Shown here: in pieces, positions 4,947-27,270 of the stretch | Position numbering within the stretch: position 1 is the first letter of the stretch | How the letters are laid out: every line of letters begins with the position of its first letter | IMG/VR virus record: IMGVR_UViG_3300025518_000025 | Span: 1-50,377 of that record | DNA length: 50,377 nucleotides | Direction: 5' to 3' (one strand) | Source: a virus | Lineage: Duplodnaviria > Caudoviricetes | Program-made: the position numbers and the translations under genes | The notes under the pieces: model-generated | Seen by the model: the letters and a program-made list of their open reading frames with translations, nothing else | Told to the model about the DNA's origin: nothing | The model's database searches: none

Positions 4947-4948
4947 AA

Positions 4949-5371
4949 TTATAATAATTGTAAATCTCCTGTTACTAACCAATCTGTTGCAGTAATCTTA
5001 ATTACTGATATAACAGAATATTGTTTTCTTGTAATTAATGTTTCAGCACTTCTAAGAGTTACACCACTACCAACTAAAGTAAGTTTTCCTGTTCCCCATT
5101 GTACAAAGTCATATCGATCTCCGATATTCGCTCCTGTATTAACAATAGTAGCATTACCAGCAGATGCTGAGTTATACACATGTAATGACCCTCTATTTGA
5201 AGCCGATACAGTAAAACTTGCAATGAAATCAGCAGGCATACCTTGTGTTAATGGTAAATAACTTGTATTATCCACATCTCCATTAGCTTTTAGAAATTGG
5301 AAGGAAGTTCCTCCCAATTTTTTGATAGCTCCATTTACAATTAAATCTGCTTCGATTTTCTTAACAGCCAT
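4949..5371 (-). CDS. Tail-fibre associated protein
   Basis: GGTSFQFLKANG repeat motif; C-terminal QWGTGKLTLV..YSVISVIK..WLVTGDL pattern typical of phage fibre tips. Confidence 0.6.
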   Translation of the reverse strand: MAVKKIEADLIVNGAIKKLGGTSFQFLKANGDVDNTSYLPLTQGMPADFIASFTVSASNRGSLHVYNSASAGNATIVNTGANIGDRYDFVQWGTGKLTLVGSGVTLRSAETLITRKQYSVISVIKITATDWLVTGDLQLL

Positions 5372-6450: not shown

Positions 6451-6454
6451 AATT

Positions 6455-8374: not shown

Positions 8375-8395
8375 AATGAATCTGTTTTATGAAAA

Positions 8396-8403
8396 CAAAT
8401 ATA
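8396..8403 (-). promoter_or_regulatory. Bacteroidota -7 promoter element for the tail fibre/lysis block
   Basis: TATATTTG matches TAnnTTTG, 21 nt upstream of the ATG at 8374. Confidence 0.7.
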
Positions 8404-8409
8404 TAAAAT

Positions 8410-8442
8410 ATTCCTTATTTAGAATGATTCTAAATAAGGAAT
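8410..8442. promoter_or_regulatory. Perfect 33-bp palindromic operator (Fur-box-like), copy 1
   Basis: ATTCCTTATTTAGAAT-G-ATTCTAAATAAGGAAT, 16-bp arms. Confidence 0.8.
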
Positions 8443-8469
8443 TTATTGTTTTTGAAACGTTCTTTTTTG

Positions 8470-8477
8470 TAACTTTG
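8470..8477 (+). promoter_or_regulatory. -7 element for the divergent small genes
   Basis: TAACTTTG, 4 nt before the ATG at 8482. Confidence 0.5.
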
Positions 8478-8481
8478 AATT

Positions 8482-8694
8482 ATGGGTTTAATATTTTGGT
8501 TATTTGTAGTACTTGTAGGTGGTGGTTGGCTAATTGGCAAACTGCTTGGAGGCTTCTTATTTCCTGATAAAAAAGATGATAAATTTACATTTGTAGACAA
8601 ATCTGTGCATTATCACGAGCATAAAAGCATCAATATTATTGATGATACTACAAAAAAGAAGATATTTGAATTAAGAGAAAGTAATAAGAAATGA
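8482..8694 (+). CDS. Small single-TM protein (moron-like)
   Basis: Hydrophobic N-terminus; opposite strand to the late operon; overlaps the next ORF. Confidence 0.7.
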   Translation: MGLIFWLFVVLVGGGWLIGKLLGGFLFPDKKDDKFTFVDKSVHYHEHKSINIIDDTTKKKIFELRESNKK

Positions 8695-8903
8695 ACAAAG
8701 AAATAATAACAATTGCAGAAACACATCTGCCAAACGTTAATAATTTTAAAAACGACATGGTAAAAATATCGATTTTAAAAGGTAATTATGATATTAACCC
8801 TGCTGTTTTACCAATAGAAAGCAGTATGTATATAATTACATATCGTAAGAATACAGATCACTTAAATAATTTATTTTGGGAGTTTGTTTCTTTTAAAGAA
8901 TAA
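8691..8903 (+). CDS. Hypothetical protein (moron-like)
   Basis: ATGA-coupled to the previous ORF and followed by a terminator. Confidence 0.65.
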   Translation: MNKEIITIAETHLPNVNNFKNDMVKISILKGNYDINPAVLPIESSMYIITYRKNTDHLNNLFWEFVSFKE

Positions 8904-8932
8904 AAAAACCACTAATTAAAGTGGTTTTTTTT
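8902..8932. terminator. Bidirectional intrinsic terminator
   Basis: A7-CCACT-loop-AGTGG-T tract between convergent genes. Confidence 0.85.
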
Positions 8933-8942
8933 CTTATTGTTT

Positions 8943-10973
8943 TTATGCTTTAATTAAATAATCTCCCGCATAAAGTAGATTAGGTATTTCACCATAACTT
9001 TCTTCTGGAATAACAGATTCAGTACCTTGTGAACTATATACATTTCCTGTTTTTTTCATCACAGCCGTTAAAACATAAGAATCAGTATCACCTAAAGGAC
9101 CTTCTGTATTAAAATTGCCGTTTTTAACATACATAATACCGTTTATTATTACATTATTATGAGAGAGCGCAATCATTAATTTTCTCCATATTTCTTTTGT
9201 TACCGGCTCAAATATAAATTCTTCACCTTCACGCAATGAGGCACTTAATAAAATTGAATCAGTATCTGTATCATGTATTTCATGTTCATCTTCAGATTTT
9301 CCTTTTTTAGATATATAGGGAATTCTTATTTTATGAACAATCCCGGTACTATAATTAATATCAGTATTGGTATCATTAAAATAAACTATTTCAATAGTAT
9401 TCTCTTGTTTTAATTTCACATCAATAACTTCGCTTAAAAATTGAACAGTTTCAAACTTAGGATCTGTTTCTGTAATTTTTACCTGAATTTTCTTATCAAG
9501 ATAAACAGACATATCAATAGAAAACTCGTAAATATTGTAATTAAAAAGGTTATAAATACTTCCAACTATTATGTTTGTATCAGTGCCTGTAAAAACATTT
9601 GATATTATAATAACCTCTGCTAATTTTGTTTCATCAAAAATGACATCTTCAATTATATACCAAACATTATCAATAATTAGATAATTACCAACATAAGCCC
9701 ATTCAGGAACTGCACCATTCAAAGCATAAGGCTCATCTATTATTTCTGTATCAAAATTGTATTTATTACCGGACACGAAATAGATACCTGTTAAACCATT
9801 TCCTAAATTATATTTAATAGCATCTCGTTTATCTTTTAAACCAATGAAATTTGATTTTTTAACAATAGGTATATTATCTTCTGTTAAATCGCATTTTAAA
9901 ACTTTTACATCAATATTTTTAAAGTTAGAACGGATTTGAGTTGTGATGGTATCACTGCTTTGAAACTTTTGTATTTCTGTATCCGGTAATTTTACATCAA
10001 CTTCATAACTCAAAGTATTTTCATCAGATTTATAATTATCACTCACTCCCCATTCAACTACTTTTTTAAAACGAATGCTATTAGCTTTTGAAGGTAAAGC
10101 TGCATAAGGCACATTTACTCCGGCTCCTATTCCAACCTCATCAAAACTTGTAACAATAAAATCTTTTTGTATTGAGCACCCTAACTGATCTTTAATGTAA
10201 ATGGTATAATTACCGGATGTTAATCCTGAAAATATATTGGAAGATTGAAATGTAACATTATCTAAAGAATATTGTAATACAAGACCTTCTACTTGTGTAA
10301 TAGTAGTTGTTGCTGTAGCCCCACTAGGTGAATTGATAATTTTAACAATTGTATTTGAAGATGATAGTTTCTTTGGCAGTGAAACTGTTTTGGCAGCTGT
10401 TTTACCATTAACATCAGTTACATTGATAATTGACGATATACCTCTACTCAATTCGTAAGTAAACGGATTATTAGTATTTGGTAAACCATTTACAATTGTT
10501 GCTAAAACACTTGTGGTTATATTTAATTTTACTTTGTTGCATTGATCTGTATCTGCAGCACTATAAACAACACCATCAATTGTTATTGCCGGTGTCTCAA
10601 CTTCATTTTGAATAGTTATAATTGCACCAGAATTATTTGCTGTTTCAGCAAAAACAGCGTTGCTGAAATTAGCTGTAATTTCTACTTTTCCAAGACCGTT
10701 TGCTAACGGTGTGGCCACAACTGTGAATAAATTTGTTGTGTTATGATCTAGATTAAAAGCGTTTTTAAAATTAGTAGCAACATTACCAAACCATCTATCA
10801 GGGTGTATTCCATCATCTGGTTCGAATATAGGAAGTGTTACTTGATAATTAGCTGAACGTATTTCTTTAAAAGTTTCATTTAACAATATACCATAGCTAG
10901 TTTCTGAGATAGCTAGAAAACTATCTACACTAGGAATTGTTTGAAAATCTATCGTTATTTTTGAAAAAGCCAT
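8943..10973 (-). CDS. Tail tip/structural protein with a SprB-like repeat
   Basis: YSLDNVTFQSSNIFSGLTSGNYTIYIKDQLGC; second gene downstream of the tape measure. Confidence 0.6.
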   Translation of the reverse strand: MAFSKITIDFQTIPSVDSFLAISETSYGILLNETFKEIRSANYQVTLPIFEPDDGIHPDRWFGNVATNFKNAFNLDHNTTNLFTVVATPLANGLGKVEITANFSNAVFAETANNSGAIITIQNEVETPAITIDGVVYSAADTDQCNKVKLNITTSVLATIVNGLPNTNNPFTYELSRGISSIINVTDVNGKTAAKTVSLPKKLSSSNTIVKIINSPSGATATTTITQVEGLVLQYSLDNVTFQSSNIFSGLTSGNYTIYIKDQLGCSIQKDFIVTSFDEVGIGAGVNVPYAALPSKANSIRFKKVVEWGVSDNYKSDENTLSYEVDVKLPDTEIQKFQSSDTITTQIRSNFKNIDVKVLKCDLTEDNIPIVKKSNFIGLKDKRDAIKYNLGNGLTGIYFVSGNKYNFDTEIIDEPYALNGAVPEWAYVGNYLIIDNVWYIIEDVIFDETKLAEVIIISNVFTGTDTNIIVGSIYNLFNYNIYEFSIDMSVYLDKKIQVKITETDPKFETVQFLSEVIDVKLKQENTIEIVYFNDTNTDINYSTGIVHKIRIPYISKKGKSEDEHEIHDTDTDSILLSASLREGEEFIFEPVTKEIWRKLMIALSHNNVIINGIMYVKNGNFNTEGPLGDTDSYVLTAVMKKTGNVYSSQGTESVIPEESYGEIPNLLYAGDYLIKA

Positions 10974-10991
10974 ATCGTTGTTTTTAGAATG

Positions 10992-13223
10992 TTATTTATT
11001 ATATTTTATTATTTCCCAGTTTCCTTTATTGTTAGGTTTTAAACTATCCAGGTATCCTTTTTCAATTTCTCCTTTCTCATTTTTAAAAGCGATGAGTCCA
11101 TACATATTAGGTACTTTTTTACCTAAAATAACGGTGGTTCCATAAATTTGCTGCAACAATTCAAAATCCACAGGAAATTCAAATTTTACTTTTTCAGGGA
11201 TAAACCTTGCCTTTGTAAGTAATTTATTCTGAATATTTCCTTTTTCAGAATATTCAATTTCACCAATTAGTTGAGTTGATAGATTAACATTCCCTACTGA
11301 GCTGGCATATCTAACAAATTCATTCGGATATTTTGTTAATCCAGCAGAAATAGTCCATCCATTATTTCTCAACATTGTAAAAGGTGTTAGTCTTAAATTT
11401 GTTGCAGAATCAGGATCATACGTTCCTGTAGGTTCTTTTTGTAAAATATCTTGCCAAACTACTTGCTCAAATACCTCTGTAAGACCTCTTTTTAAATCTA
11501 ATAACATAATATCTTTATCATAAGTGGTGTCTTCTGTTGGATAGTCAGCTTTTGGCTTACGTCTTGATATTTCTGTTGCTGTTGGATCAGCTCTGTATTT
11601 TGATAGTAATGTTAATATGTTTTTTTCTATTATTGATAAGGTATAAGTAGATTTTGCATTGTATTCAAATAATCCCATTATTTCTTCATACTCACCTCCT
11701 TTTTCATAACCAACTTCAACACTTGAATAATATAGTTCTGGCATTTTGGTTCTTTTTACATTACTAACCTGTATATATTCAAACACATTAGAATAACTAT
11801 TTCCTAATTTTATGGTTACATTTCTGTTATAGAAAAATTCTTTTTTTTCTATTCTGATACGTTCTTTAAAACCTATTTTTTCAATACCCATTCCCAATCC
11901 TTTAACAGCTAGATAAGAAGTTAGAAAATCTTTTAATGATGTTGTGAATTTCTTATACAATTCATCACCATCAACAAACCCTCTTACCCAATGACCGTGT
12001 GTAAGTCCAATTAAAGAGGCTTCGCCATCTTCAGCATATCCAAGATCTGTTCTTCCTAAAGCTTCTGAATATAAAGCGTCTGTTCTTCCGGTGATTATCT
12101 GTAATAACCTATTACAAACTTCAAAAGGTAGTAACACATTAGATTGTGATTTTTCATAGAAACTATCTTCTTCAATTGTTATACTTGCAACCGTTTCTTC
12201 AAAATCAACATAAATACGATCATTTGGGTCGAAAACAGCTCCACTAAACGACCCGCTACCAAACCATACCAACGCCAAACTCTCACCTTCTAATAATTCA
12301 ATATTTTGATTATAATTAACATTGATTATATGGTTATCCATATTATATGGATTTGGCACTGTATAAAGATGCGTTCTGTTTACCAAGTTATAATCTTCAC
12401 CACCATTATATTTAACCAAATCAACACGCATTTTAATATTACTGGCGCTTAAACTACGTGGTTTTATTTTACATTTTACAGATATATTAATTTTTAGTGT
12501 TTTTTTTCTATCATTAACAGCATAAAATAATGATGAAGGAGCTCCTTTTATAATGGTTCCTGCCTGTTCAAACTGATTTTTTAAGATAGAATGTACCAAT
12601 TCATCAGATTTATAATTAACTGATACCGGAATGCCTAACTGCCCTTCATTATAACCATCACTGGCTTTTCTTCTAAAAGCATTACTAATACGATCTATTT
12701 CTTGAACCTCCAATAAACTTTTTAAGAATATTTTACGTCCGTTTAAAGAAACTTTTTTAGGGATTAAAGGATTAATAGGCATCCCATCAATTGTATCTAA
12801 ACGCTCTAATTCTAATTGTTCACTCTCTCTTGATTTTATCAATTTTTCAAGTCCACCTGCATTGTATTTAATGCTCAGTTTATCGTCTTCTTCTGTTTTA
12901 GTCATCAAATCTAAAAAACCATCGTAACCACGAATCCATTGATCCGTTTTAGGGTGTTTTTCATCTTTTACCAATCGTATTTCTGCATTAACTCCGTATA
13001 AATCATCAACTAAATTTATCCAATCTTTACCATTGCCTAAAAATTTTAAGCTATTGCTAAAATTGGTAAATAAACCGTCATAACCTTTGTTTTTAGCCAG
13101 CTCTTTGTCATCATCTTTCCATCCTAAAGGTTCGGAAATAACAATACTGGTCATGCCTTTACAAGAAAGTGTATAACGTACTCTGTCGCTTAATGTTGGG
13201 TTTACATCGCTCATGAGTTCCAA
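10992..13223 (-). CDS. Tail tip/baseplate hub-like protein
   Basis: Directly downstream of the tape measure; EPLGWKD N-terminal motif; 743 aa. Confidence 0.6.
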   Translation of the reverse strand: MELMSDVNPTLSDRVRYTLSCKGMTSIVISEPLGWKDDDKELAKNKGYDGLFTNFSNSLKFLGNGKDWINLVDDLYGVNAEIRLVKDEKHPKTDQWIRGYDGFLDLMTKTEEDDKLSIKYNAGGLEKLIKSRESEQLELERLDTIDGMPINPLIPKKVSLNGRKIFLKSLLEVQEIDRISNAFRRKASDGYNEGQLGIPVSVNYKSDELVHSILKNQFEQAGTIIKGAPSSLFYAVNDRKKTLKINISVKCKIKPRSLSASNIKMRVDLVKYNGGEDYNLVNRTHLYTVPNPYNMDNHIINVNYNQNIELLEGESLALVWFGSGSFSGAVFDPNDRIYVDFEETVASITIEEDSFYEKSQSNVLLPFEVCNRLLQIITGRTDALYSEALGRTDLGYAEDGEASLIGLTHGHWVRGFVDGDELYKKFTTSLKDFLTSYLAVKGLGMGIEKIGFKERIRIEKKEFFYNRNVTIKLGNSYSNVFEYIQVSNVKRTKMPELYYSSVEVGYEKGGEYEEIMGLFEYNAKSTYTLSIIEKNILTLLSKYRADPTATEISRRKPKADYPTEDTTYDKDIMLLDLKRGLTEVFEQVVWQDILQKEPTGTYDPDSATNLRLTPFTMLRNNGWTISAGLTKYPNEFVRYASSVGNVNLSTQLIGEIEYSEKGNIQNKLLTKARFIPEKVKFEFPVDFELLQQIYGTTVILGKKVPNMYGLIAFKNEKGEIEKGYLDSLKPNNKGNWEIIKYNK

Positions 13224-16200
13224 TTAATATTTTTAGACTTCCATATTGAATGAGGAATGTCAATTTTGTTTTTAAGAATGATTGTTTTTTGACGCTCAAT
13301 TACTTTTCTGGTCTGTTTTAATTCTTCTAACATTTCTTTTCCATAAGCATCATCAAACAGTTGTTTAGCTTGATAATCATTCATGTTTTTACCTTCCATT
13401 GCAAGTGATGACATCATTGCAGCGCGTTGCAATTTGTAGTACTCTTCTACTGAACTATGCACCTGGTCATCTTTCTTTAAAAAGGTAAGTGTTGGTTTGT
13501 TAGGTGTTAAACGTGGATTATTACCGTATTTATCGGTAATTACCTCACTAACACCACCGTCTCCAACATAGGCAATTTCTTCTTTTCCGCCTTTTCTACC
13601 ATGTTTGTATTTCGGAATTGGCTGCGCTAATACCGTTGCTGCTTGTACGGCTCCAATACCAATAATGTATGGCAATAAAGCAGGACCAAAAATAGGACCT
13701 AAACCATAAGGCGGAGGACCCAATGCTGTAATAGAAGCCAATGCAGTTTGCGCTACAATAGTAGCTAAATTGGCTATTTTATTAAAGATTGCCTGCTTTT
13801 GTTGTTCCTTGCGCTTTTTAGCTTCTAATTTTTCACGCTGTTTTTCTGCTTCATTTGCAATTAAGTCTTTTTGTATCTGATCATCACCAGCTAGTTCTAA
13901 TTGCTTATTGTAGTATTCTTCACTTCGTTGAATATCATCATCTATTCGCTGGATTCTAGCATCAAAAATAGTATTGGTAAAATCAACCAACGCATCTTTT
14001 AATTGAAATGCTAAATCTTTAACTCTTTCGCTGAATTCTTTTTCTAAGTATTCTTTAGTAAAAATATTTTCAGCATAATTTTCTGTTTCAAGATCAGAAA
14101 CTTCCTTTTTAAAACGGAATAAATCAGCGGTATATTTTGCTATTTTTTCAGCTGATATACGTTCTTTTTCAGGTAACTTATCTTGATTAGCCAGTAAATC
14201 TTCAATTTTTGATATTTGAAAATTTAAACCATCAATAGCATACTTCTTTTGAATGGCTAAAACACGCTTTTCATGGTCTTCTCTTGCTTTCTCAATTAAC
14301 TCAAAATTACCTTTAGCAGCATCTAATTCATTAACATAGGTATTGTTCTCTGCAACTAAATCTTTGTTTAAATTATTGTCTTTTGTTTGTAATTCAGCAT
14401 CTATTCTTTTCTGAAGAACATTTAATTCATTATCAATTATTGCCTGACGCTTTTTTTCTTCTGTGATAGCAATACCGGTTAATGCTTCCTGGTATTTTTC
14501 ATACAATAATTGTTGCTCTGCAGTTAATTTTTTCTTGAGTTCACCTGTTTTAATAAATTCTGCTATTTCAATATCTGAAAGCTGACGAACAAATTTTCCT
14601 GAATCCTCATCGTATTTTCCTAATTGCTTCAATTCATTTTCTAATCCTTCTTTATGTTTTTGAAGCATCTTTTGATTGGCCACTTCCAGCGCATCTAATT
14701 TTTCATCTAAGGTTGATTTTTCATCTTCAACAATTTTATTGTTTAAATCAATTTCTCTTTGAAGTCTGAATTGTGATAATTTAAAAGCATCATCATCCGC
14801 TTTCTTTTGTGCATCATACAGTTCTTTTCTCAATTTCTTTTGAGCTGCTAAAAATGCTTTTCTTTTTTTCTCATCTTCATCTCTTTGTGTTTCAGCATCT
14901 TTTAGGTTGTTTTGATGTTCTAATTCTGATGCTAAATCTCTATACTTTTTATTCTCTGCTAAAAGCAGATTATTGGAAAGTGTTAAATTATTTTTTTCAT
15001 TTTCAGTATTTACTTTTAGATTGCTTAGTTTCTTTTGCGCTCTATCTTTAGCTACAACAATACCAACGCTACCTCCACTAGCTTTTTCTATTCGTTCTAA
15101 TTCTGCAATTTCATTTTCTAATACCTTTATTTTCTCTGCAGAAGTGTTTTTAGTGTTTTCTAATAATTCATTATTAGCTTTAATAATCATCTGATTTGTT
15201 TCAATGAAATTATCCAACACTTTTTTCTTTGCAGCAATTTCTTGCTTATCTAATTCCTTAGATTCGCCTTGTTTTTTTCTTTTAAGCTCAAACTCATTTT
15301 CTATTTGTTTGATGTTTTTATTGTAAAACTCCTCATTATTTTTAGCAGTTTCTTCTAATACTTTTTTAGTTTTATCAGTATTGGTATTAATTCTATTTTG
15401 TATTGCTTCATTTTCTGATAGTTCACTGTTAAAAACTTTATAAGCAACAACCACCGCTGCTAATAAAGCTAAAACCACACCCCAAGGCGTTGCAGTCATA
15501 GCCGTATTTAATCCGGTTTGAGCAACTGTTGCAGCTCTAACGGCTGTTGCTTGTGCTAAAACAGATGTTCTACCAATACCAGTAGCTAATGCAAAACTTA
15601 ATTCAGCAGCTGCAGCAGCTGTTTTTAAGGCAGTATAGGAAGAAGTTATAAAACTCATAAGCTTCATAATTCCAAAATATGCCAATAAAACACTACCAAA
15701 TTTTATAAAATTTTCAATTATACTTCCTAAATTATCTCTTAAATACTTTAAAGAATTAGCTATTTTTTGTGTTCCACCATTTGCTTGATCAGTAGATAAA
15801 ATATACGCATCCCACTTGTCTTTTACATCACCTATAATAGAGGATATACTTTCAGAGGCAGCTTCTACCTCTCTGTTTAAAGCTAAGTTTTCCTGGTACT
15901 CTAATGTAGCTTGAGCAACTGAATCTGTTAAAATAGTATAGTTGGCTGCTAAAGCACCAATAACGGTTGTGGCTCTTTTTTCGGTAATATTAACATCATC
16001 TAAAATATTATTTAGATTTTGACCTTCTTCTTTTGCTTTTGAGAGACCACCAACGAATTTTACAAAAACTCCAGAAGCATCTTTATTGAATTGTTCTGAT
16101 AGTTCTTTTTGCGTTAATCCAGTAAGTTTTAATACTTGCTCAAGATTTGCACCTGTTGAAATAGCTTTATCAATTACTTTAAAAGCAGTTTGAATAGCAC

Positions 16201-17380
16201 TTCTAGATGATTCAGCTTCTGAACCCAAAGAAGATGTTGCTGCTCCCAAACCTAAAACACTTTCAGCAGATGCATTGTAAATAGATACTCCCTTTTGTAT
16301 TTCTGTTGAGTTTTCTAATACCTGAGCTTCAGTTGTAGCAAAATTATTACCTAACTGCGTGATTACAGATGCTAAACGGTCTGCATTTTCAAAACTATCT
16401 TGAGAAACTTCAATAAATTTCGCAAAATCCTGAACTTGTTCATTTGAAATAATATCCGATGTTAGCTTTAATTTCTCAATAGCTGTAGAAAATCGCAATA
16501 TATTTTCAGTTCCTTTAACACCCAATTGTCCTGCTACTTCAGATGATTTTAAAAGACCTGCTACAGAAACTCCATTTAATTTGTCGCCCAAATCAACAAC
16601 TTCTTTTCCAAAATCTTTTAAATCCTGACCAGAAATGTTAGTTGTTTTTCCAACGGCAATTAATTGGCGGTCAAAATCTTTAATAGTTGAAAAAATGTCT
16701 TTTACTATTTGCCCAAATAAATCAACACCGGTTAATAATCCGAAAGTAGACACTAAGTCTCTAGCTGTTTGATTTAACCCTTGAAAAGCACTGCTATAAT
16801 TACCAATGTTTTTAGAATAATTTTTAGTAGCTGCATCAACCGCTTTTACACGCGCATCTAGTTTATCATATTCAACTTGCGCAATCTTTACTTGATTGAT
16901 ATTTACTTTTTCAGCACTTAGTAAATTTGCTAAAGTTTGTTGTGCTTTGTTGCGTTGAGTGTTTAATCTTTCATAAGAGCTTACCAATCCTAAACGCTCA
17001 CGAGCTTCCGATTTTAATGCTTTAGCAGTTTCTTGTAACTCTACACGTTCTTTTATTAAAGCTCTACTAGTGCCCTCTGAAATTAATTGTTTCTTTTTAA
17101 TAGCACTAATTAATTGATTTTCTAACTGAATTTGTTCACGCCAAACAACACTTTGTGTCTTACTAATTTCAATTTCTTGCGTTTTAGCTTTTATGTATTC
17201 AGTATTGTTAGTCGAGTTTTTTATAAGTTTTGCAATGTTATTTAATTCAATAACACCTTTAGAAAATTCCTTATTTTTATCAATTGCTAATTGAACTTGT
17301 TTTTGATATTCAGCACCCCAATTAAGAGCTTCATCTTCAATAACCTGTTTACGAGTGATTACACCATCAGAGTTTGCCAT
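13211..17380 (-). CDS. Tail tape measure protein (TP901-like core)
   Basis: 1389 aa; coiled coil; FDRQLIAVGKTT..AGQLGV..LGNNFATTE core; ATPWGVVLALL TM region. Confidence 0.93.
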   Translation of the reverse strand: MANSDGVITRKQVIEDEALNWGAEYQKQVQLAIDKNKEFSKGVIELNNIAKLIKNSTNNTEYIKAKTQEIEISKTQSVVWREQIQLENQLISAIKKKQLISEGTSRALIKERVELQETAKALKSEARERLGLVSSYERLNTQRNKAQQTLANLLSAEKVNINQVKIAQVEYDKLDARVKAVDAATKNYSKNIGNYSSAFQGLNQTARDLVSTFGLLTGVDLFGQIVKDIFSTIKDFDRQLIAVGKTTNISGQDLKDFGKEVVDLGDKLNGVSVAGLLKSSEVAGQLGVKGTENILRFSTAIEKLKLTSDIISNEQVQDFAKFIEVSQDSFENADRLASVITQLGNNFATTEAQVLENSTEIQKGVSIYNASAESVLGLGAATSSLGSEAESSRSAIQTAFKVIDKAISTGANLEQVLKLTGLTQKELSEQFNKDASGVFVKFVGGLSKAKEEGQNLNNILDDVNITEKRATTVIGALAANYTILTDSVAQATLEYQENLALNREVEAASESISSIIGDVKDKWDAYILSTDQANGGTQKIANSLKYLRDNLGSIIENFIKFGSVLLAYFGIMKLMSFITSSYTALKTAAAAAELSFALATGIGRTSVLAQATAVRAATVAQTGLNTAMTATPWGVVLALLAAVVVAYKVFNSELSENEAIQNRINTNTDKTKKVLEETAKNNEEFYNKNIKQIENEFELKRKKQGESKELDKQEIAAKKKVLDNFIETNQMIIKANNELLENTKNTSAEKIKVLENEIAELERIEKASGGSVGIVVAKDRAQKKLSNLKVNTENEKNNLTLSNNLLLAENKKYRDLASELEHQNNLKDAETQRDEDEKKRKAFLAAQKKLRKELYDAQKKADDDAFKLSQFRLQREIDLNNKIVEDEKSTLDEKLDALEVANQKMLQKHKEGLENELKQLGKYDEDSGKFVRQLSDIEIAEFIKTGELKKKLTAEQQLLYEKYQEALTGIAITEEKKRQAIIDNELNVLQKRIDAELQTKDNNLNKDLVAENNTYVNELDAAKGNFELIEKAREDHEKRVLAIQKKYAIDGLNFQISKIEDLLANQDKLPEKERISAEKIAKYTADLFRFKKEVSDLETENYAENIFTKEYLEKEFSERVKDLAFQLKDALVDFTNTIFDARIQRIDDDIQRSEEYYNKQLELAGDDQIQKDLIANEAEKQREKLEAKKRKEQQKQAIFNKIANLATIVAQTALASITALGPPPYGLGPIFGPALLPYIIGIGAVQAATVLAQPIPKYKHGRKGGKEEIAYVGDGGVSEVITDKYGNNPRLTPNKPTLTFLKKDDQVHSSVEEYYKLQRAAMMSSLAMEGKNMNDYQAKQLFDDAYGKEMLEELKQTRKVIERQKTIILKNKIDIPHSIWKSKNINWNS

Positions 17381-17990
17381 TATTAGTAGTATTTTGTTTC
17401 TTAATTGAGTTAATTTTTGCGTTTACTTGCTTTTGAAAAGCGTAATATTTTAAATAGGAAACCGTATTGTAATCGCCAATATCAAATCCTAATATTGATG
17501 AATAACTAGCCATTATATCATCTATATTATACTCACTTTTACCTTGTTCTTTTGGCTCCGGCAACATATTTTGATATAATTCTGCTTTTACTACATACGC
17601 ATTCGCTTCATTTTCAATTTTTTCTAAATCAGCATAATATTTATCAGTACTTTCGAGTGATATTTTGTACCCTTTCTCAATAAGCACATCGTATATTTCC
17701 TGATTAAAATCATATTTTAAGACTTCACAGCTCATTAATACCACCTTATTTAAAGCTAGTAATTCATCAATATTTTTTGAAAGTTTAAATATTTTCTTAG
17801 CCTCAGTGGTTTGGTTTTTTTCTAGATGTTCATTGTATAATTCTGCCCAAATAGTAGCATACTTTACTAAATTTTCAGGCGAACAATCACCTTCTTTTTT
17901 AACATCGCTATTTAATAGCCAAAACGAACCATGCTCTTCTATTTTTAAGAAGAGTTTGTAAGGAATTATATCAAGTGAATTGTAAATCAT
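17367..17990 (-). CDS. Putative tail assembly chaperone
   Basis: Position immediately upstream of the tape measure (synteny only). Confidence 0.4.
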   Translation of the reverse strand: MIYNSLDIIPYKLFLKIEEHGSFWLLNSDVKKEGDCSPENLVKYATIWAELYNEHLEKNQTTEAKKIFKLSKNIDELLALNKVVLMSCEVLKYDFNQEIYDVLIEKGYKISLESTDKYYADLEKIENEANAYVVKAELYQNMLPEPKEQGKSEYNIDDIMASYSSILGFDIGDYNTVSYLKYYAFQKQVNAKINSIKKQNTTNNGKL

Positions 17991-18436
17991 ATATCGAGTA
18001 ATTTTCTGCTATTTTCAATAAAAAAAGGCAATAACCTCGTTGCTATCACCTCTTTTAAGTCTTTATCACGCAATCCAAAGAGTTTGTCAGACAACCAATG
18101 TTTACTACTTAGAATATCGTTTGTTTTTGGATCTGTTGATCTAAACCGTAACACTCCTGAGACTTCTTGCATATAGAAACCTTTTAACCAGTTTCCAGTA
18201 TCAATACCTGTAAAAGGAGTTCCCCATTCTTTTTTACCACCAGATATTTCTTCAGTTGCCTTAGAATAAAATCCTATTGGTTTTCCAAATATATCCTCAC
18301 TGTCCTCTGAAATCCTTTTTTTCTCAAGTTCTATTATCTCTTTTTCAATACTTCTTATAAACTTATAAAGGTCCTTTTTTAACCGATTCTGATCTAGCTT
18401 TTTTGCTTTGTTCAACTGTTCTTGAAGTGTTGCCAT
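17987..18436 (-). CDS. Putative neck/tail completion protein (HK97 gp10-like / virion morphogenesis)
   Basis: DTGNW motif, size and synteny. Confidence 0.45.
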   Translation of the reverse strand: MATLQEQLNKAKKLDQNRLKKDLYKFIRSIEKEIIELEKKRISEDSEDIFGKPIGFYSKATEEISGGKKEWGTPFTGIDTGNWLKGFYMQEVSGVLRFRSTDPKTNDILSSKHWLSDKLFGLRDKDLKEVIATRLLPFFIENSRKLLDI

Positions 18437-18590
18437 CTGTAGCTATTTTATAAGCTTTTTTAAGTTCCTGCTCTCGATCTTTAGGATGCATATTTTTAAA
18501 GACATGAGTTGAGCTAAACTCTTCTTTAAAATCCGCAAAGGACTTGTTATAGCCCTCTGCGAAAGTTATCCCTTTATACGTTTTTTTCAT
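18363..18590 (-). CDS. Hypothetical structural-region protein
   Basis: Coupled to the tail tube stop codon; overlaps the next gene by 74 bp. Confidence 0.55.
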   Translation of the reverse strand: MKKTYKGITFAEGYNKSFADFKEEFSSTHVFKNMHPKDREQELKKAYKIATDGNTSRTVEQSKKARSESVKKGPL

Positions 18591-19489
18591 TACGTAACGG
18601 TAATTGAAAGCGGTGTTGGTCCTTCATACATAATGGTAGTTTGAACCACAATTCCTTTTACACTAACGGTAAATCCGGTTGCAAAACCAGTTCCAGTTAA
18701 TTCATAGGTATTATCAACACCTGGAGCAACAAATGATACAGCTTGAACAGCTCCTGCAAGATCTTTAACCTCAAAATCACCATCTTCTAGAGAAGTAACA
18801 AATGAGTTACCAGCTTTAGCAGTGAATTTTATAGATGTAGCAGAAGCACTTACTTGTTGTAAACCAACATCAAAGATTCCTTCTAAATGCCCTTCTTCTA
18901 AATCGCTTTTAACGATTACAGCACTTAAAACATCATCTTTATCAGCAAAAGTGATAGAACCTTTTACATAAGGAACTTTATCTTTTGTGGCGCGAATTCT
19001 GGTAACGGTCAATTCTTTTATTTTTCGACCTTTTACTTTTACACCATCAACGGCATAAATACCTGAGTAATCAGCATCTTCGTTGAATTCAAATAATTCA
19101 CCGTAGTTTCCTAATTCCTGGTATGATTTTAATGCAGCATAAGCAGCAACACTTAAATAACACTCGAATGTGATTTTTTCAACTCCTTTTGAAGTTACTT
19201 TTGAGAAGTTTCCGCTCTCAAACTTTGTATCTTCGGTTGATGCATCAGCTAATTCGTAAACCGGGAACAATGGCACAATGCTTTTAGCTGCAATAGCAGC
19301 TCTCCAATCGGCTACTGTTTTAAAAGCAGTAACAGAAGGAAACTCAAACCCATTTGATAAAACAGGAATAAGTAATTTTGATTCAATACAGTTATCTCTG
19401 TAACCTGTATTTTTCTGCGGATTCGCCGCTCCGCTGCAAATGTCTATATATGTTTTTGACATAATATTTTTAATTAATTTGTTAAACAA
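18590..19489 (-). CDS. Major tail tube protein (probable start MSKTY), with a C-terminal Ig-like segment
   Basis: Size, beta-rich composition and position between head-tail genes and the tape measure. Confidence 0.6.
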   Translation of the reverse strand: MFNKLIKNIMSKTYIDICSGAANPQKNTGYRDNCIESKLLIPVLSNGFEFPSVTAFKTVADWRAAIAAKSIVPLFPVYELADASTEDTKFESGNFSKVTSKGVEKITFECYLSVAAYAALKSYQELGNYGELFEFNEDADYSGIYAVDGVKVKGRKIKELTVTRIRATKDKVPYVKGSITFADKDDVLSAVIVKSDLEEGHLEGIFDVGLQQVSASATSIKFTAKAGNSFVTSLEDGDFEVKDLAGAVQAVSFVAPGVDNTYELTGTGFATGFTVSVKGIVVQTTIMYEGPTPLSITVT

Positions 19490-20028
19490 CTAACGTTATA
19501 CGTAATTTCTCCACTTATTGAAAACACATGAAAAGGATGTTCATCATATCCTTTTAGGTTTTCTGTGTAAAAATCATCTAATGATTCCTTAATTCCTTTT
19601 TCCATTTTTTCAAATGAAAACCACGTTTTTTTCCTGATCAACTCTATTGCTTTCATCTGAGCTTCCATATCTGCTCTATGAACACTCTCAGGATATATTT
19701 TTTGAAGATTTAACATAAACACTATTTTAACAGTATTTGTAAATCTTATACCCTCTTTTGAGTTGTGTTTTGGTCCTTCAATAAAAAAGATAGAACCGTT
19801 TTTAGTGTCATTTATAAGAACATCTTTATACTCATTCTTTCCTATATAAGCCTCTGGAACATCCTTTTTGTCTTTTGACTGATTCTTGTAAACACGACCA
19901 TACACTTCTATTTCACCCCAATTTAAATTATCAAAAAGATACATTTGTATTTTTTGAATAACAGCATCAATGCCTTTAGGATTTGTGAGTATATGATTCA
20001 TAATTTTACCAAAGTGGTGTTCCGTCAA
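19474..20028 (-). CDS. Putative tail terminator/completion protein
   Basis: Synteny. Confidence 0.45.
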   Translation of the reverse strand: MTEHHFGKIMNHILTNPKGIDAVIQKIQMYLFDNLNWGEIEVYGRVYKNQSKDKKDVPEAYIGKNEYKDVLINDTKNGSIFFIEGPKHNSKEGIRFTNTVKIVFMLNLQKIYPESVHRADMEAQMKAIELIRKKTWFSFEKMEKGIKESLDDFYTENLKGYDEHPFHVFSISGEITYNVSCLTN

Positions 20029-20587
20029 TTAATACAGGATCTGGAAAAAGTATTTTTTGCGCTTTTTTAATAGCTTCATTTTTTTCATAAGTAATGCCTT
20101 TTGCAATAAAATGACCGTTGTCATTCTTAGCTCCATACAATTCAATTTTTAATGTTTGAAATGATAAGGAAGCATTACGTTCTATGAAATTCTTACGGTT
20201 AGAAGAAACAAACAATTCTAATATTTTAACCGCAATAGTGTAGCCAATAGCACTATCAAATAATTTTACCTTTTTAGCTATTATACTAGAGTAATCCGTT
20301 GTATCAATGTATAAATGATGTTGATCGAAAATTACCGTTAATACTTCTCTTACAGATTGCTCTCTAATAGAAGCCAGGAATTTATTGAAGTCTGCCATAT
20401 CCATATCTACTTCTGCAACTGCTGCATAGATATTTTCAACAGAAGCCAGCTGGTGAAATGCGTTTACTTTTCGACCTGAATCTGCTGTTTTATTTTCGGT
20501 ATCGAGAATAATTGAGCTATCAGAATCTAAAGGCACTTCCCAGCCTATTCTGTTAATTAAAGATGATATGCTTTCTTCCGAATACAT
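20006..20587 (-). CDS. Putative head-tail adaptor
   Basis: First gene after the capsid gene. Confidence 0.45.
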   Translation of the reverse strand: MYSEESISSLINRIGWEVPLDSDSSIILDTENKTADSGRKVNAFHQLASVENIYAAVAEVDMDMADFNKFLASIREQSVREVLTVIFDQHHLYIDTTDYSSIIAKKVKLFDSAIGYTIAVKILELFVSSNRKNFIERNASLSFQTLKIELYGAKNDNGHFIAKGITYEKNEAIKKAQKILFPDPVLIDGTPLW

Positions 20588-20590
20588 CTA

Positions 20591-21868
20591 TTATACCGCT
20601 TCTACAATGTTAGCTTCAAATACTAAGATTTGCTCTTCTGACAATGCGTTAATAGCATCTAACAATTTAGCATCAGTTGAAGCGATGGTTAATTTAGAAG
20701 TTGGTTTGGCTAATTTAAGCGCATCTACAACAGATTGCTTAGTGTAGCTAGTTCCTTCATAATCAAAATTAGCATCACCCTCTGTTTGAGCATCAACAGC
20801 AGCTTCTTCTGTGTCTAATAAATAGATACTATCAACATTACTGATAACCGGCAATGCTAAAGCTTGAGAAGAGGTGAATTCTGCAAATGGTTCTGATTGA
20901 TGCCATTTTTTCAACAAAATAAATCCATCTGCTTTTTCATACATAACTGATTTATTTGGACGTGTTTCCTCTGCCAAAATACCATAAACTAACTTACCAA
21001 CTTTAGTGTTTTGTAAGAACACAACGGTATTTGCTGCCCAAGGTGTTTGAATAGTTCTTACACCATCACGCTCTGTTACAACAGTTCTATCAACAATAAT
21101 TATTGATAGTTTATAACGTTTTTGTAACATGGTATTTACTTGATCAATATCTGGTACAGGAATTTGTGATCCTACAAAATTTTGACTAAACGCATATTGC
21201 TCACGTGTTTGTTGATTCATTGCTAAATTATCGAAGGTAGCTTCATCCATCATTAATACGGATAATACATTTCCTTTAGATTTAGCTTGTTTAATGATAC
21301 GTTTAATGTCGTCAATTGGTTTAGAGGTCGAATCTGACCAAGGTTTAACAGCACCAAATTTATTGGCTGCCGGATAACCGTAGTTTACTCTAATTCCTGA
21401 ACCAACATTCGTATCATCATCAACAAGTGTTAAACCTGTAGATAATCCTTGTAAGAACATAAACTCTAATTTTTCATAGATACCTAAAAGAGATTTAGTA
21501 GTATCTGCGAAAATCTTACCAACCAATATCTTAGTTTCAACGTTTCTTGCTTGAAGCACGTCAATATCAGACATTGTTTTTTCATTTAAAGATAATTTCA
21601 TTCCTAACTTTGGAATATCGCCAGAAGCGGTTCCGAATGAATCTCTTTTTTTCAATGGTAAAGCAGAATCCATTGCCACAACATCAGCTGAAACAACTGA
21701 TCCGTCAACGTTTAAGGTTTGCCATTTAAGGTCGGTTGACAATTCTTTTGTCAACATTTCTTTATGTAAATAGGTTAAAGGTGTTTTTTTACCATTAACT
21801 CTTTCTACTAAGTCTTTTGCTATTGCTTTAAAAAAAGCTGCGAACTGTACAAATAACGATTGTTCCAT
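20591..21868 (-). CDS. Major capsid protein (lambda gpE-like) with a C-terminal extension
   Basis: ADVVAMDSALPLKKR, IPKLGMK..LNE and WSDSTSKPIDDI patterns of the cap_E type. Confidence 0.88.
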   Translation of the reverse strand: MEQSLFVQFAAFFKAIAKDLVERVNGKKTPLTYLHKEMLTKELSTDLKWQTLNVDGSVVSADVVAMDSALPLKKRDSFGTASGDIPKLGMKLSLNEKTMSDIDVLQARNVETKILVGKIFADTTKSLLGIYEKLEFMFLQGLSTGLTLVDDDTNVGSGIRVNYGYPAANKFGAVKPWSDSTSKPIDDIKRIIKQAKSKGNVLSVLMMDEATFDNLAMNQQTREQYAFSQNFVGSQIPVPDIDQVNTMLQKRYKLSIIIVDRTVVTERDGVRTIQTPWAANTVVFLQNTKVGKLVYGILAEETRPNKSVMYEKADGFILLKKWHQSEPFAEFTSSQALALPVISNVDSIYLLDTEEAAVDAQTEGDANFDYEGTSYTKQSVVDALKLAKPTSKLTIASTDAKLLDAINALSEEQILVFEANIVEAV

Positions 21869-21874
21869 AACTTA

Positions 21875-22270
21875 TTAGTCTTTTGTAAATCTGATTAATG
21901 GTAATGCTGTTATTGCTCCTGCAGGAACAGCGTAAGGAGAAGCCACCTTATTAACAGTACCACGAACTAAAATAGCTGCAAATGGTTTTGTTTTTAAAAT
22001 GCTCGAAACTAACACACCTTTATAGGTATGTGATGCTGGCAATGCTGCATAATCAGCTCCAGAGACTGGCATCGGTTTTAAATTTCCTGATGATGTTTCT
22101 TCGATGATTATATGTCCAGCTTTAATAACATTAACGTCAGCTGCTACAGCTGCTACATCTAATGTTTTACCACCAGGAATTGTCTCTAGGTTTTGGATAA
22201 CAACAATGCTATCATTACTAGTGTCAACGGTTTCCTTGGTATTGTCTAAATTTCCGGTTATACCTGACAT
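21875..22270 (-). CDS. Head decoration protein
   Basis: GGKTLD..VIKAGH..RGTVN; lies between scaffold and capsid. Confidence 0.7.
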   Translation of the reverse strand: MSGITGNLDNTKETVDTSNDSIVVIQNLETIPGGKTLDVAAVAADVNVIKAGHIIIEETSSGNLKPMPVSGADYAALPASHTYKGVLVSSILKTKPFAAILVRGTVNKVASPYAVPAGAITALPLIRFTKD

Positions 22271-22295
22271 AATTGATTAAATATTAATTAACTTT

Positions 22296-22952
22296 TTAAA
22301 CTAACTCGTCAACAATTAATTTAATATCTTCGGCACTAGGTTCGTCTCCGCCTTTAGTTCTATAAGGTACTCCGCCTGAATATTGCGTTTGATCTGCAAC
22401 AGATTGTCTGATTTCTGTATATTCGGTTTCAAGGGCTTTTACTTGATCCTCAATAGGTGTTTCAGAATTCGTGTCAACACGTTTAATCCATTGTTCTTGC
22501 AACTCCGGTTTCATCCCTTTTAAAATTTCAGAACTTCCAAAAAGCTTAGTGGCTGTTTGGATTTTGGTTTCTGTAACCTTACCTTTTTCAAGATTATCAA
22601 CCTTTTCTAACAATGCTTTTGCCCACGCTGGAGCATCGTCATCATTTTTCTTTTTAGATGGGTCTTCCTCTTCTTCATCCTCTTTTTTACCAACATTTTT
22701 TGCTAACAACTCTGTTTTTGCCTTATTGTCCGCTTCAAGAGTTCTTGCTCTATCATCGTCCTTAGCAATTTCTTCGATGCTTATAACATCGTTAAAATCA
22801 TTGATTACTACATCAATTGCAGCATCGTCTGCATCGTCAGCTGGTTTTTTAGCAAGTTTATCCGCAATTGCGTCTAACCTTTTTTGAGATAAGTTAGCCT
22901 TAGGAAATAATGCCTTAAGTCTAGCCTTAATGATTTCTGGTTTTACTGCCAT
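22296..22952 (-). CDS. Capsid scaffolding protein
   Basis: Acidic, helical, with a PAWAKALL motif; upstream of the capsid genes. Confidence 0.7.
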   Translation of the reverse strand: MAVKPEIIKARLKALFPKANLSQKRLDAIADKLAKKPADDADDAAIDVVINDFNDVISIEEIAKDDDRARTLEADNKAKTELLAKNVGKKEDEEEEDPSKKKNDDDAPAWAKALLEKVDNLEKGKVTETKIQTATKLFGSSEILKGMKPELQEQWIKRVDTNSETPIEDQVKALETEYTEIRQSVADQTQYSGGVPYRTKGGDEPSAEDIKLIVDELV

Positions 22953-22989
22953 AAGAAATTTAATTAAATTATTGATTTATAACTTTTAA

Positions 22990-22997
22990 CAAATGTA
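22990..22997 (-). promoter_or_regulatory. -7 promoter element for the head/tail operon
   Basis: TACATTTG matches TAnnTTTG. Confidence 0.7.
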
Positions 22998-23004
22998 ATA
23001 AATT

Positions 23005-23037
23005 ATTTCTTATTTAGAATCATTCTAAATAAGGAAT
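23005..23037. promoter_or_regulatory. Palindromic operator (Fur-box-like), copy 2
   Basis: ATTTCTTATTTAGAAT-C-ATTCTAAATAAGGAAT; one mismatch in the arms. Confidence 0.8.
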
Positions 23038-23045
23038 TTTAACAC

Positions 23046-23074
23046 AAAAAAACCACCCGTTTTATGAGTGGTTT
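23046..23074 (-). terminator. Intrinsic terminator after the portal gene
   Basis: AAACCAC..GTGGTTT stem with a U-tract on the minus strand. Confidence 0.75.
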
Positions 23075-23088
23075 GGTTAACTTAAATC

Positions 23089-24495: not shown

Positions 24496-24500
24496 GATTT

Positions 24501-25974: not shown

Positions 25975-26232
25975 TTAAACTATTTTTATTAATTTATGAT
26001 GAATCATAAAGCGTACTTTTTCTTCAATATGCAGTTTTTTTTTACGACCAAAAGCACGTTTTTTATGCTGTATTAAATAAAATTGATCAACAATTTTTTG
26101 CCGTTCTATTGGATCATTGAGCTTGTATTTCTTAATAACAGCTTTTACCTGTCTTTTTTGGTTTCTTTTTCTAATTAGAAACTGCATTCTAACAGTTATT
26201 TTTCTCTTTAACAATTGAAGTTGTTTAATCAT
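25975..26232 (-). CDS. Basic hypothetical protein
   Basis: K/R-rich 85-aa ORF coupled to its neighbours. Confidence 0.6.
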   Translation of the reverse strand: MIKQLQLLKRKITVRMQFLIRKRNQKRQVKAVIKKYKLNDPIERQKIVDQFYLIQHKKRAFGRKKKLHIEEKVRFMIHHKLIKIV

Positions 26233-26380
26233 CGATGTAACTTTTTAAAGATATTTCTAGATCATTTAATTCATTTTCTGCAAAATCGAGAACTGCTAAA
26301 CCGATTAACTCAGGGTTTGATGTTTCTCTAAGTTCACCTTCAATTTCTATATATACTTTACCGTTTTTTATTTGTATCAT
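26225..26380 (-). CDS. Small acidic protein, 51 aa (not in the ORF track)
   Basis: Hand translation MIQIKNGKVYIEIEGELRETSNPELIGLAVLDFAENELNDLEISLKSYIDD; fills the gap after the ACP gene. Confidence 0.7.
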   Translation of the reverse strand: MIQIKNGKVYIEIEGELRETSNPELIGLAVLDFAENELNDLEISLKSYIDD

Positions 26381-26394: not shown

Positions 26395-26637
26395 CTACTT
26401 GTTAATACCACTCAATAATTCTCCTACGGTACGTACTCTTTCAATATTTTGATCGTTTACCTGTACATTAAATTCATATTCCACTTCCATTACTAATTCA
26501 ACAACATCTAGCGAGTCAAGACCTAACTCATCATATAGAACTGTACTTGATTTAACCTCAAAATTATCGGTCAATTCTGATTTATTTCTGATGACTTTTA
26601 TTAATTCATCTAGCGTAATTTGTCTTCTTTCTTCCAT
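26395..26637 (-). CDS. Acyl carrier protein (AcpP-like)
   Basis: LGLDSLDVVELVMEVEYEF with the phosphopantetheine Ser; C-terminal TVGE; 80 aa, acidic. Confidence 0.92.
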   Translation of the reverse strand: MEERRQITLDELIKVIRNKSELTDNFEVKSSTVLYDELGLDSLDVVELVMEVEYEFNVQVNDQNIERVRTVGELLSGINK

Positions 26638-27227: not shown

Positions 27228-27270
27228 CAAAAATAACATATTTTATTATTATTTTGTAAAATATGTTATT
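27228..27270 (-). promoter_or_regulatory. -7 element overlapped by a 14-bp inverted repeat
   Basis: TATTTTTG at 27228-27235; AATAACATATTTTA-N11-TAAAATATGTTATT at 27232-27270. Confidence 0.55.

Follow-up and report, generated by a model that had tools for sequence, protein, structure and literature searches.

We analysed a 50,377-bp provirus record from IMG/VR (IMGVR_UViG_3300025518_000025, hereafter the window), in which the promoters of two virion-gene operons carry the same palindrome. The record is estimated to be 95% complete, has a GC content of 31% and holds nearly all of its genes on the minus strand. Searching it with the pattern ATTTAGAATn{1-12}ATTCTAAAT returned exactly two copies of ATTTAGAATnATTCTAAAT, which we call site 1 and site 2 (Table 1), and not one copy arose in any of 100 dinucleotide-preserving shuffles of the window. 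The two copies belong to a 42-nt direct repeat (8403-8444 and 22998-23039, 93% identity), and the repeat finder also reported the site 1/site 2 repeat as the longest inverted-repeat pair of the window. The palindrome is longest at site 1; the extended palindrome of site 2 covers about 23009-23033. Weak box-like matches with three mismatches each lie within coding sequence at 4947-4965 and 34011-34029, and are probably due to chance.

The integrase and the candidate repressor mark the element as temperate, and the phage is a temperate one of the Flavobacteriia type. A megablast search of positions 6000-24500 against 50,697 phage records found no near-identical record, and the nearest named relative of the capsid protein is that of Cellulophaga phage Nekkels_1 (38% identity). 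The head-tail operon begins at site 2 and the fibre operon begins at site 1. Reading away from site 2, the 218-amino-acid (aa) gene is followed by a 131-aa gene and then by the major capsid protein gene, and from the 639-aa gene behind site 1 tail- or decoration-like genes continue down to position 1326. An earlier note on this DNA had described a scaffold-capsid-tail operon and a fibre-lysis operon. The first description stands, with a gene of unknown function in the scaffold position, and so does the fibre label; for lysis, no gene was identified with confidence, the only matches being to DUF5675 and, weakly, DUF6549.

Table 1. Genes and sequence elements of the window that bear on the two palindromes (ORF, open reading frame)
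Feature	Position	Strand	Evidence or remark
Integrase	1-1281	+	PHROG/Pfam scans
639-aa tail-fibre-like protein, first gene behind site 1	6455..8374	-	PHROG tail fibre/minor tail, weak to moderate E-values
-7 box TATATTTG, fibre-operon promoter	8396..8403	-	13 nt downstream of palindrome; ATG of 639-aa gene at 8374
Site 1 extended palindrome, 15 pairs, TTCCTTATTTAGAAT-G-ATTCTAAATAAGGAA	8410..8442		extension beyond core not kept in relatives
Site 1 core palindrome, 19 bp, ATTTAGAATGATTCTAAAT	8417..8435		centre G
Divergent -7 box TAACTTTG	8470..8477	+	4 nt before small-gene ATG, near-leaderless; kept in 5/5 site-1 loci
70-aa predicted membrane protein, divergent from site 1	8482..8694	+	homologues likewise placed in relatives
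Second 70-aa ORF	8691-8903	+	no family match
Terminator-like hairpin, bidirectional intrinsic type	8902..8931		ends head-tail operon and small plus-strand genes
Large virion protein	8943-10973	-	PHROG/Pfam scans
Large virion protein	10992-13223	-	PHROG/Pfam scans
1389-aa ORF, tape-measure position and size	13211-17380	-	homologues by BLAST only
Major capsid protein	20591-21868	-	PHROG/Pfam scans
218-aa gene, first behind site 2, scaffold position	22296..22952	-	phrog_5824, function unknown
-7 box TACATTTG, head-tail-operon promoter	22990..22997	-	14 nt downstream of palindrome; ATG of 218-aa gene at 22952
Site 2 core palindrome, 19 bp, ATTTAGAATCATTCTAAAT	23012..23030		centre C
Terminator-like hairpin and T run after portal gene	23050..23074	-	directly upstream of site 2
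Portal	23089-24495	-	PHROG/Pfam scans
Large terminase	24501-25970	-	PHROG/Pfam scans
51-aa ORF P0005, stand-alone ~40-aa module	26225..26380	-	candidate phage partner of boxes; in terminase operon
Candidate repressor, weak HTH_3	49091-49831	+	PHROG/Pfam scans

Both promoters contain TAnnTTTG, the -7 element of the Bacteroidetes primary sigma factor, and the nearest edge of the core palindrome lies 43 nt (site 1) or 60 nt (site 2) from the ATG. Bacteroidetes promoters are built on paired -33 and -7 elements. By the rule given in the discussion of Guo et al. 2017 (PMC5609570), the -33 element is a TTTG placed ~19 nt upstream of the -7 box. At both window promoters the right arm of the palindrome, ATTCTAAAT, occupies this slot, which contains neither TTTG nor TTG, and a TTTG at the -33 position is absent from all 19 aligned promoters of the window and its relatives. 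Because the palindromes of the window end 13-14 nt upstream of the -7 box, they are centred at about -35, in place of the usual TTTG; with the 13-16-nt spacer of the aligned promoters, and TAnnTTTG taken as the -7 element, the box spans roughly -44 to -26. The element that the earlier note had placed at both promoters is the one recovered here, the distances that it gave are correct (centre 8426 is 30 bp from 8396, and centre 23021 is 31 bp from 22990), and the proposed coverage of the -33 region is confirmed.

A terminator had also been described upstream of each promoter. One lies directly upstream of site 2 (23074..23050), but at site 1 the terminator (8902-8931) is ~460 bp away and two small plus-strand ORFs (8482-8903) lie in between, which puts site 1 in a divergent promoter region. 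PHROG and Pfam scans gave no family match for either of these 70-aa ORFs, which are possibly a moron expressed from the lysogen. An analogous small divergent gene occurs in the phages Freya, Danklef and Arctus, which are taken up below.

The palindrome coincides with a published operator. The Fur box predicted for Riemerella anatipestifer, 5'-ATTTAGAATTATTCTAAAT-3' (PMC5609570), is identical to both window sites at all 18 specified bases, so that the resemblance pointed out in the earlier note is complete. In the same paper, Fur shifted four promoter fragments bearing the box. Later papers from a different group (PMC10986502, PMC11967795) report Mn2+-dependent binding of Fur to a box-bearing promoter fragment in R. 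anatipestifer, a rhuB promoter containing the box ATTTAGAATTATCCTAAAT, and de-repression of rhuH by fur deletion, by a Fur-box mutant and by iron limitation. The Riemerella and window boxes are both 19-bp, 9-1-9 inverted repeats in a promoter region, less than 100 bp from a start codon, in an organism group that uses -7/-33 promoters. The Riemerella box controls chromosomal genes of iron and haem uptake with demonstrated dependence on Fur and iron, whereas the window boxes, as predicted sites, sit on virion-gene promoters and are centred on -35.

We scanned one genome per species for the exact motif and obtained at least 120 loci, of which 70 of the 120 listed are Bacteroidota by title. The others listed are mostly alpha-proteobacteria, Paenibacillus, Streptococcus, Acidobacteriota and Verrucomicrobiota, with Rhizobium, Bradyrhizobium and Ancylobacter among the genera. 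Flanking ORFs of at least 80 aa that point away from the motif and start within 300 bp of it were collected from 65 of the 70 Bacteroidota loci (92 ORFs), the remaining five having none that qualified. Their Pfam matches include Plug/TonB receptor (9), NqrA (7), multihaem cytochrome c (7), HemA (3), AraC (3, divergent from hemA), SufBD (2), Fe-S_biosyn (2) and FUR (2), and the first member scanned was an anaerobic ribonucleotide reductase. Eight Flavobacteriaceae-type genomes hold 4-10 sites each with up to two mismatches, as compared to 0-3 for the reversed pattern. In a Polaribacter metagenome-assembled genome with a single Fur-family gene, 10 of the 13 box-flanking ORFs were scanned, and the flanking genes encode a multihaem cytochrome c, a 2-oxoacid:ferredoxin oxidoreductase (POR)/ferredoxin pair, ApbC/NUBPL, SufB and succinate dehydrogenase cytochrome b.

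Judged by the genes that it flanks, the motif marks an iron-related regulon in Bacteroidota, many of whose targets are iron-using rather than iron-uptake genes. The earlier note had held that absence of the motif from host iron-uptake promoters would speak against Fur. The scan gave the opposite outcome, since the motif flanks iron-related genes, including those for TonB receptors, haem and Fe-S proteins. The core words are shared with the iron-control element of Irr in alpha-proteobacteria (TTTAGAA-N3-TTCTAAA) and with the PerR boxes of Firmicutes, and alpha-proteobacterial, Paenibacillus and Streptococcus loci are among the motif matches listed. These are other paralogues in other hosts, and the likeness bears only on the motif being of the Fur-family type; loci from Rhizobium to Streptococcus are in line with a recognition code of the Fur superfamily.

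Host boxes fall into two groups: at suf, iscA-like and some TonB receptor genes they coincide with the -7 box or the start site, and elsewhere they sit 24-58 nt upstream. Perfect boxes stand 46-58 nt upstream of the nqrA -7 box in seven loci (L023, L028, L069, L076, L085, L095 and L113), at 55-58 nt in six of them and often divergent from apaG. Other perfect boxes precede multihaem cytochrome c genes by 45-100 nt. This arrangement suggests that Fur may directly and positively control iron-rich respiratory complexes in Bacteroidota.

We then asked whether the palindromes are kept in related phages. The 118 viral loci listed with an exact motif include 11 relatives of the window phage, each with a box at one or the other homologous place. 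In a sample drawn without regard to the motif, eight relatives found through their capsid protein (53-89% identity), seven carry the box ~1.15 kb upstream of the capsid gene, four of them exactly, one with one mismatch and two with two. In the eighth (L246, positions 2330-2350), the late promoter is kept and the central 6 bp of the box are lost (ATTTAG-TCTAAAT). Both sites keep their geometry in relatives of 35-89% protein identity. Alignment of 14 site-2 and 5 site-1 sequences puts identity at 96-98% in the core as compared to 70-74% in the flanks, the spacer to TAnnTTTG measures 13-16 nt in 18 of 19 aligned sites, and TAnnTTTG itself is present in 18 of 19. The conservation in related phages that had been proposed as a check is therefore observed, both among the seven relatives and in the shared geometry of the 18 sites.

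At site 2, the window and the contigs of 13 relatives share one layout: a GC-rich terminator with its T run, ~12-15 nt, the box, 14-16 nt, TAnnTTTG, ~45 nt, and the ATG of the 'MAVKPEIIKARLKA' gene. Among the 13 relatives, 12 have the terminator and L244 does not; it follows the portal gene or, in L246, small ORFs inserted after that gene. At site 1, the window and four relatives share a divergent membrane-protein gene, ~20-35 nt, the box, 13-14 nt, TAnnTTTG, 4-27 nt and the fibre ATG, and in all five the small divergent gene has a near-leaderless -7 box. In the relative L247, which has no small gene, promoter and box are missing too, and the fibre gene comes next without a break. This joint absence makes the second promoter look like a restart copy of the late promoter, one that would be needed after insertion of a terminator-flanked cassette.

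The motif is also widespread in viruses outside this family. At least 118 viral loci carry it exactly, as compared to 4 for a reversed palindrome of the same composition, an excess of ~30-fold or more. In other viral families the box precedes small terminase, portal and helicase-like genes, and the phage-type spacing to TAnnTTTG is found in 11 of 11 relatives and in seven unrelated viral loci, one of them before a portal gene. The Polaribacter phages Freya_1 and Danklef_1 have boxes before portal, tail and tail-protein genes, those of Freya_1 lying at 6848 (one mismatch), 14267 and 22527 (both exact). In the cultured, temperate Leeuwenhoekiella phage Arctus_1, a one-mismatch box lies between a small divergent gene and a tail-fibre gene, 13 nt from TATATTTG, and further sites follow the large terminase gene and precede the S24 repressor gene. 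The last of these (L262, 1696-1714) is a two-mismatch box in the immunity region, directly upstream of the gene for the S24-peptidase repressor.

A palindrome of this length could act as a nucleic-acid structure, either as a terminator or attenuator hairpin in read-through RNA or as a cruciform. The extended palindrome of site 1 is indeed flagged as terminator-like on both strands, and the hairpins predicted for the window reach -9.5 and -16.2 kcal/mol, the latter at site 1. Yet only 3 of its 15 pairs are GC, so that site 1 does not qualify as an intrinsic terminator, and the hairpins of three relatives are weak (-5.5 to -6.5 kcal/mol). Among 25 aligned sites (23 distinct), six of nine core pairs are invariant, and the G-C pair departs in 7 of the 23 distinct sequences, always to a non-pair and never with compensation; the commonest variant, TTAGAA to TTATAA in one arm, occurs in host sites as well. 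Conservation of the sequence without conservation of the stability, and a core in which no change is compensated, fit a protein operator rather than a hairpin.

The outer flanks behave differently from the core in that some changes there are two-sided (covariation 0.116 vs 0.081, a value reached by 5 of 500 shuffles), a signal that relatedness may inflate. Outside the core the flanks are often symmetric, with a sequence that differs by phage (TATGTT...AACATA; TTTCTT...AAGAAA), extending the palindrome to ~31 bp. Placed upstream of the -7 box, the palindrome is also not part of the late mRNA, and site 2 is already preceded by a proper GC-rich terminator. We consider it very improbable that the palindrome works as a structure.

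If a protein binds here, it could be a phage regulator with no relation to Fur, the likeness to a Fur box being coincidence or mimicry. Candidates are the basic 85-aa protein encoded at 25975-26232 and an AP2-like protein in relatives; the terminase operon holds several small unannotated proteins, and the box is restricted to a clade within the phage family. However, identical 18 bases are found in phage families that are unrelated and differ in gene content, and in iron regulons throughout the host phylum, whereas joint drift would be expected of a private regulator and its site. The phage Fur-like proteins described below retain the host recognition helix, and the likely operators of the phage's own immunity repressor differ from the box. 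An unrelated phage regulator is therefore an improbable occupant.

Three TTACTTGTA-like repeats surround a TATATTTG box at ~49040-49095, between the HTH_3 candidate and the minus-strand early genes. These are probably the immunity (CI) operators, and their sequence is unlike the Fur box. The CI repressor was considered as the binder of the box and set aside, as the switch region (48925-49090) has different repeats and no box at up to three mismatches.

The identity to the published box, the promoter geometry, the conservation, the iron-related host regulon and the lack of a phage Fur in the window together make it highly probable that the palindromes are operators of the Fur family. A six-frame search of the window for PF01475 gave no match at E up to 1, and the same search was positive in 14 control genomes. 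Nor was a Fur-family domain found, at E up to 0.001, in any of 50 further viral records that bear the box, including 22 with a completeness of at least 90%; these were drawn, mainly as longer contigs, from the 107 non-relative box-bearing viral loci listed. With no Fur domain in the window or in these records, and with CI operators of unrelated sequence, host Fur is the default candidate.

We lean, with moderate confidence, towards host Fur as the occupant with repression as its default action. Fur boxes would then be built into two sigma-A-type promoters (-7 element TAnnTTTG) of virion genes, and metal-loaded host Fur, which recognises this sequence in Flavobacteriales, would occupy them. A Fur dimer at -35 should occlude sigma, hence repression: the bound protein would cover the -33 region, keep the virion operons shut in the lysogen and in early infection, and couple them to the iron state of the cell. 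With less certainty, the 51-aa module protein may be the phage-side switch that relieves or converts Fur, a role proposed for it because other phages fuse the same module to a host-derived Fur DNA-binding domain that has no metal sites. Titration of Fur by the sites acting as decoys was considered and set aside, because two sites per genome seem too few against an abundant regulator.

The fused proteins come from related and unrelated phages. In Freya_1 and Danklef_1, the gene that immediately precedes the small terminase gene is annotated 'ferric uptake regulator family protein', and the Freya protein matches PF01475 over the winged-helix part only (positions 2-77 of 121, 32 bits). Besides the annotated protein of Danklef_1, a PF01475-type domain occurs in the relatives G405 (a weak match) and G420 (by eye and alignment). 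One such fused mini-Fur aligns to residues 11-101 of host Fur (41% identity, E 9e-25), and the alignment ends just before the HDH metal motif of the host protein. The recognition helix is kept (YRVSRAT(L/I)(Y/F)NT), while the mini-Furs have no HxH motif and 0-4 histidines as compared to 6-9 in host Fur. By these features the mini-Furs look like captured, metal-blind DNA-binding domains of Fur. The earlier note had allowed for a phage late activator and recognised none; this alternative now has to take in the host-derived mini-Fur, which other Flavobacteriia phages, related and unrelated, encode just upstream of their terminase genes and of which the window has the module only.

The module itself was recognised through Freya gp09, whose last 41 residues share 52% identity with P0005 (E 1.7e-9), and P0005 has the IxIKNGKVFxxxEGExKETxNPxLIGxAxLD-like sequence of the family. 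A search of 1.84 billion representative proteins gave 14 matches, of which 11 were taken as real; three long repetitive ones (P0010, P0012 and P0016) were set aside. Six of the 11 are free-standing (47-72 aa), four are fused to a FUR winged helix (module N-terminal in three and C-terminal in one; three above the Pfam cut-off and one weak), and one is fused to something other than FUR. Within the phage family, the module profile matched 14 of the 24 records searched. It was found in all five complete box-bearing genomes (G000, G404, G406, G412 and G414) and was absent from the complete box-less G421 and from three box-less prophage genomes. The L246 contig also encodes a 115-aa protein of module and Fur-like winged helix (L276:363-707, minus strand). 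A homologous-protein search found no longer forms of P0005, and an Atlas search gave no usable match. From the gene-fusion pattern and the co-occurrence with boxes, we propose that P0005 may act with a Fur-type domain, here that of the host.

The same observations can be read in favour of activation. Since the promoters have no -33 element, they may depend on a bound protein; a Fur-type protein on the box would then replace the -33 element and recruit RNA polymerase late in infection. Here, host Fur could do so in partnership with the 51-aa module, and in Freya-like phages the fused mini-Fur could, with iron secondary and the module gene as the late switch. The logic would resemble that of a class II activator, or that of T4, where the MotA box, acting with AsiA, replaces the -35 element at phage promoters. 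In T4 as in the window, a box near -30 to -35 takes the place of a host element at a temporal class of promoters, with a small phage co-factor as a candidate here; the differences are that no homology exists, that the window box is the host regulator's own operator and that activation is hypothetical.

Several findings suit an activator. TTTG is missing at -33 in 19 of 19 promoters, and the -35 geometry is phage-specific: the 11 relatives and seven unrelated viral loci have it, and 0 of 142 host site-orientations do. The mini-Fur genes of Freya and Danklef occupy a typical late-regulator place upstream of the small terminase gene, their His-poor products without HxH would be metal-independent, and the module co-occurs with boxes. 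The far-upstream host boxes at nqrA and cytochrome genes hint at positive action of Fur in the phylum. On the other side, an activation domain and a contact to RNA polymerase are only hypothetical, the module has no detectable family or fold, Arctus_1 has boxes without it, and the only experimental data on the box in Flavobacteriales show repression (PMC10986502, PMC11967795). Activation by a Fur-type protein is the main rival reading, but we regard it as less likely than repression.

Repression by host Fur, the reading that we prefer, has its own difficulties. The Riemerella mobility-shift assays, as described in those papers, used promoter fragments and not footprints, the phage sites are sequence predictions, and the Fur comparison was made with the host group. 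The phage geometry, a box ending 12-17 nt before TAnnTTTG, did not occur once when perfect boxes of Bacteroidota genomes were examined (142 site-orientations), so that the host precedent is silent on whether Fur represses or activates here. The iron-using targets with a far-upstream box imply that Fur in this group may also activate, and the absent -33 element fits an activator as well. If Fur alone repressed these promoters, iron starvation would switch on the virion genes of the lysogen, an outcome that seems detrimental in the absence of a further layer of control.

The distribution of the box raises further objections. It is not universal in the phage family: L246, the eighth relative (capsid 53%), has a centre-deleted remnant at the same place (cttATTTAG-TCTAAATaa), the complete relative G421 has no box, and the three of 401 sampled Flavobacteriaceae genomes with a capsid homologue (40-42% identity) have neither a box nor another palindrome at the homologous place. 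As to the module, Arctus_1 has boxes and lacks it, and G420 has it fused to a winged helix but has a destroyed site-2 box. The module aligns with the Fur C-terminal domain in the same register by BLAST and hhalign, but not significantly (hhalign probability 0.4%), and we make no claim of homology between the two.

Simple iron gating, as at host genes, is consequently not the sole reading, given the mini-Fur and module genes and a -35 geometry unlike that of host promoters. A bolder proposal, which we put forward tentatively, is that marine Flavobacteriia siphoviruses built a late-gene switch on host Fur, in which the module would serve as a timer that converts or removes Fur. This timer would be free-standing here and, in other phages, fused in either order to a captured, metal-blind Fur domain, an elaboration that we regard as no less speculative.

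Control of prophage cargo genes by host regulators is textbook knowledge, as with stx1 under Fur and corynephage tox under DtxR. A Fur box also precedes the sitABCD cargo operon of lambda-like coliphages (PMC6969025). In all three cases, as proposed here, the operator of a host iron-sensing repressor on phage DNA couples phage-borne genes to iron status. Those genes, however, are accessory ones (morons or toxins) that the lysogen expresses, whereas the operators of the window lie on virion structural promoters, belong to a conserved late-promoter architecture and go with mini-Fur or module genes. Literature searches turned up no account of virion promoters of phages that carry Fur boxes, nor of a Fur encoded by flavobacterial phages. 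The paper on Freya and Danklef uses, in its main text, none of the words ferric, iron, promoter and regulator, although its supplements may hold annotation tables. Operators of host metal regulators on phage DNA are known; here they would be a conserved element of virion-gene promoters and come with a candidate partner on the phage side. That capsid, tail and fibre promoters should have the operator of a host iron regulator built into them is not textbook knowledge.

Iron is a limiting nutrient in the ocean. If Fur does act on these promoters, iron status would govern how much phage is produced by Flavobacteriia, which are abundant and associated with blooms, with a bearing on lysis-lysogeny decisions and carbon turnover. 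If the module is indeed a timer, this would be a new class of phage late regulation that links iron supply to marine virion production. A new and tractable regulatory interface between phage and host is also provided by the free module and the mini-Fur genes, and cultured pairs exist (Polaribacter with Freya or Danklef; Leeuwenhoekiella with Arctus_1).

The region upstream of the terminase gene holds three further elements. An 80-aa acyl carrier protein is encoded at 26395-26637 (minus strand) and has the phosphopantetheine-site motif GLDSLD (phrog_5934, E 2e-14). A 111-nt tRNA-like sequence at 26679-26789 (minus strand) has an acceptor/T-arm-like 3' end, GGTTCGAATCC...CCA, and an insert of ~45 nt; a tRNA reading was rejected, as ARAGORN reported none and Rfam gave only a sub-threshold match (tmRNA 3'-part, E 0.11). 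Finally, an operator-like palindrome, ACATATTTTA-N11-TAAAATATGT, lies at 27236-27266, adjoining a minus-strand TATTTTTG box (27235..27228), and stands upstream of a 127-aa secreted-protein gene and the terminase-proximal genes.

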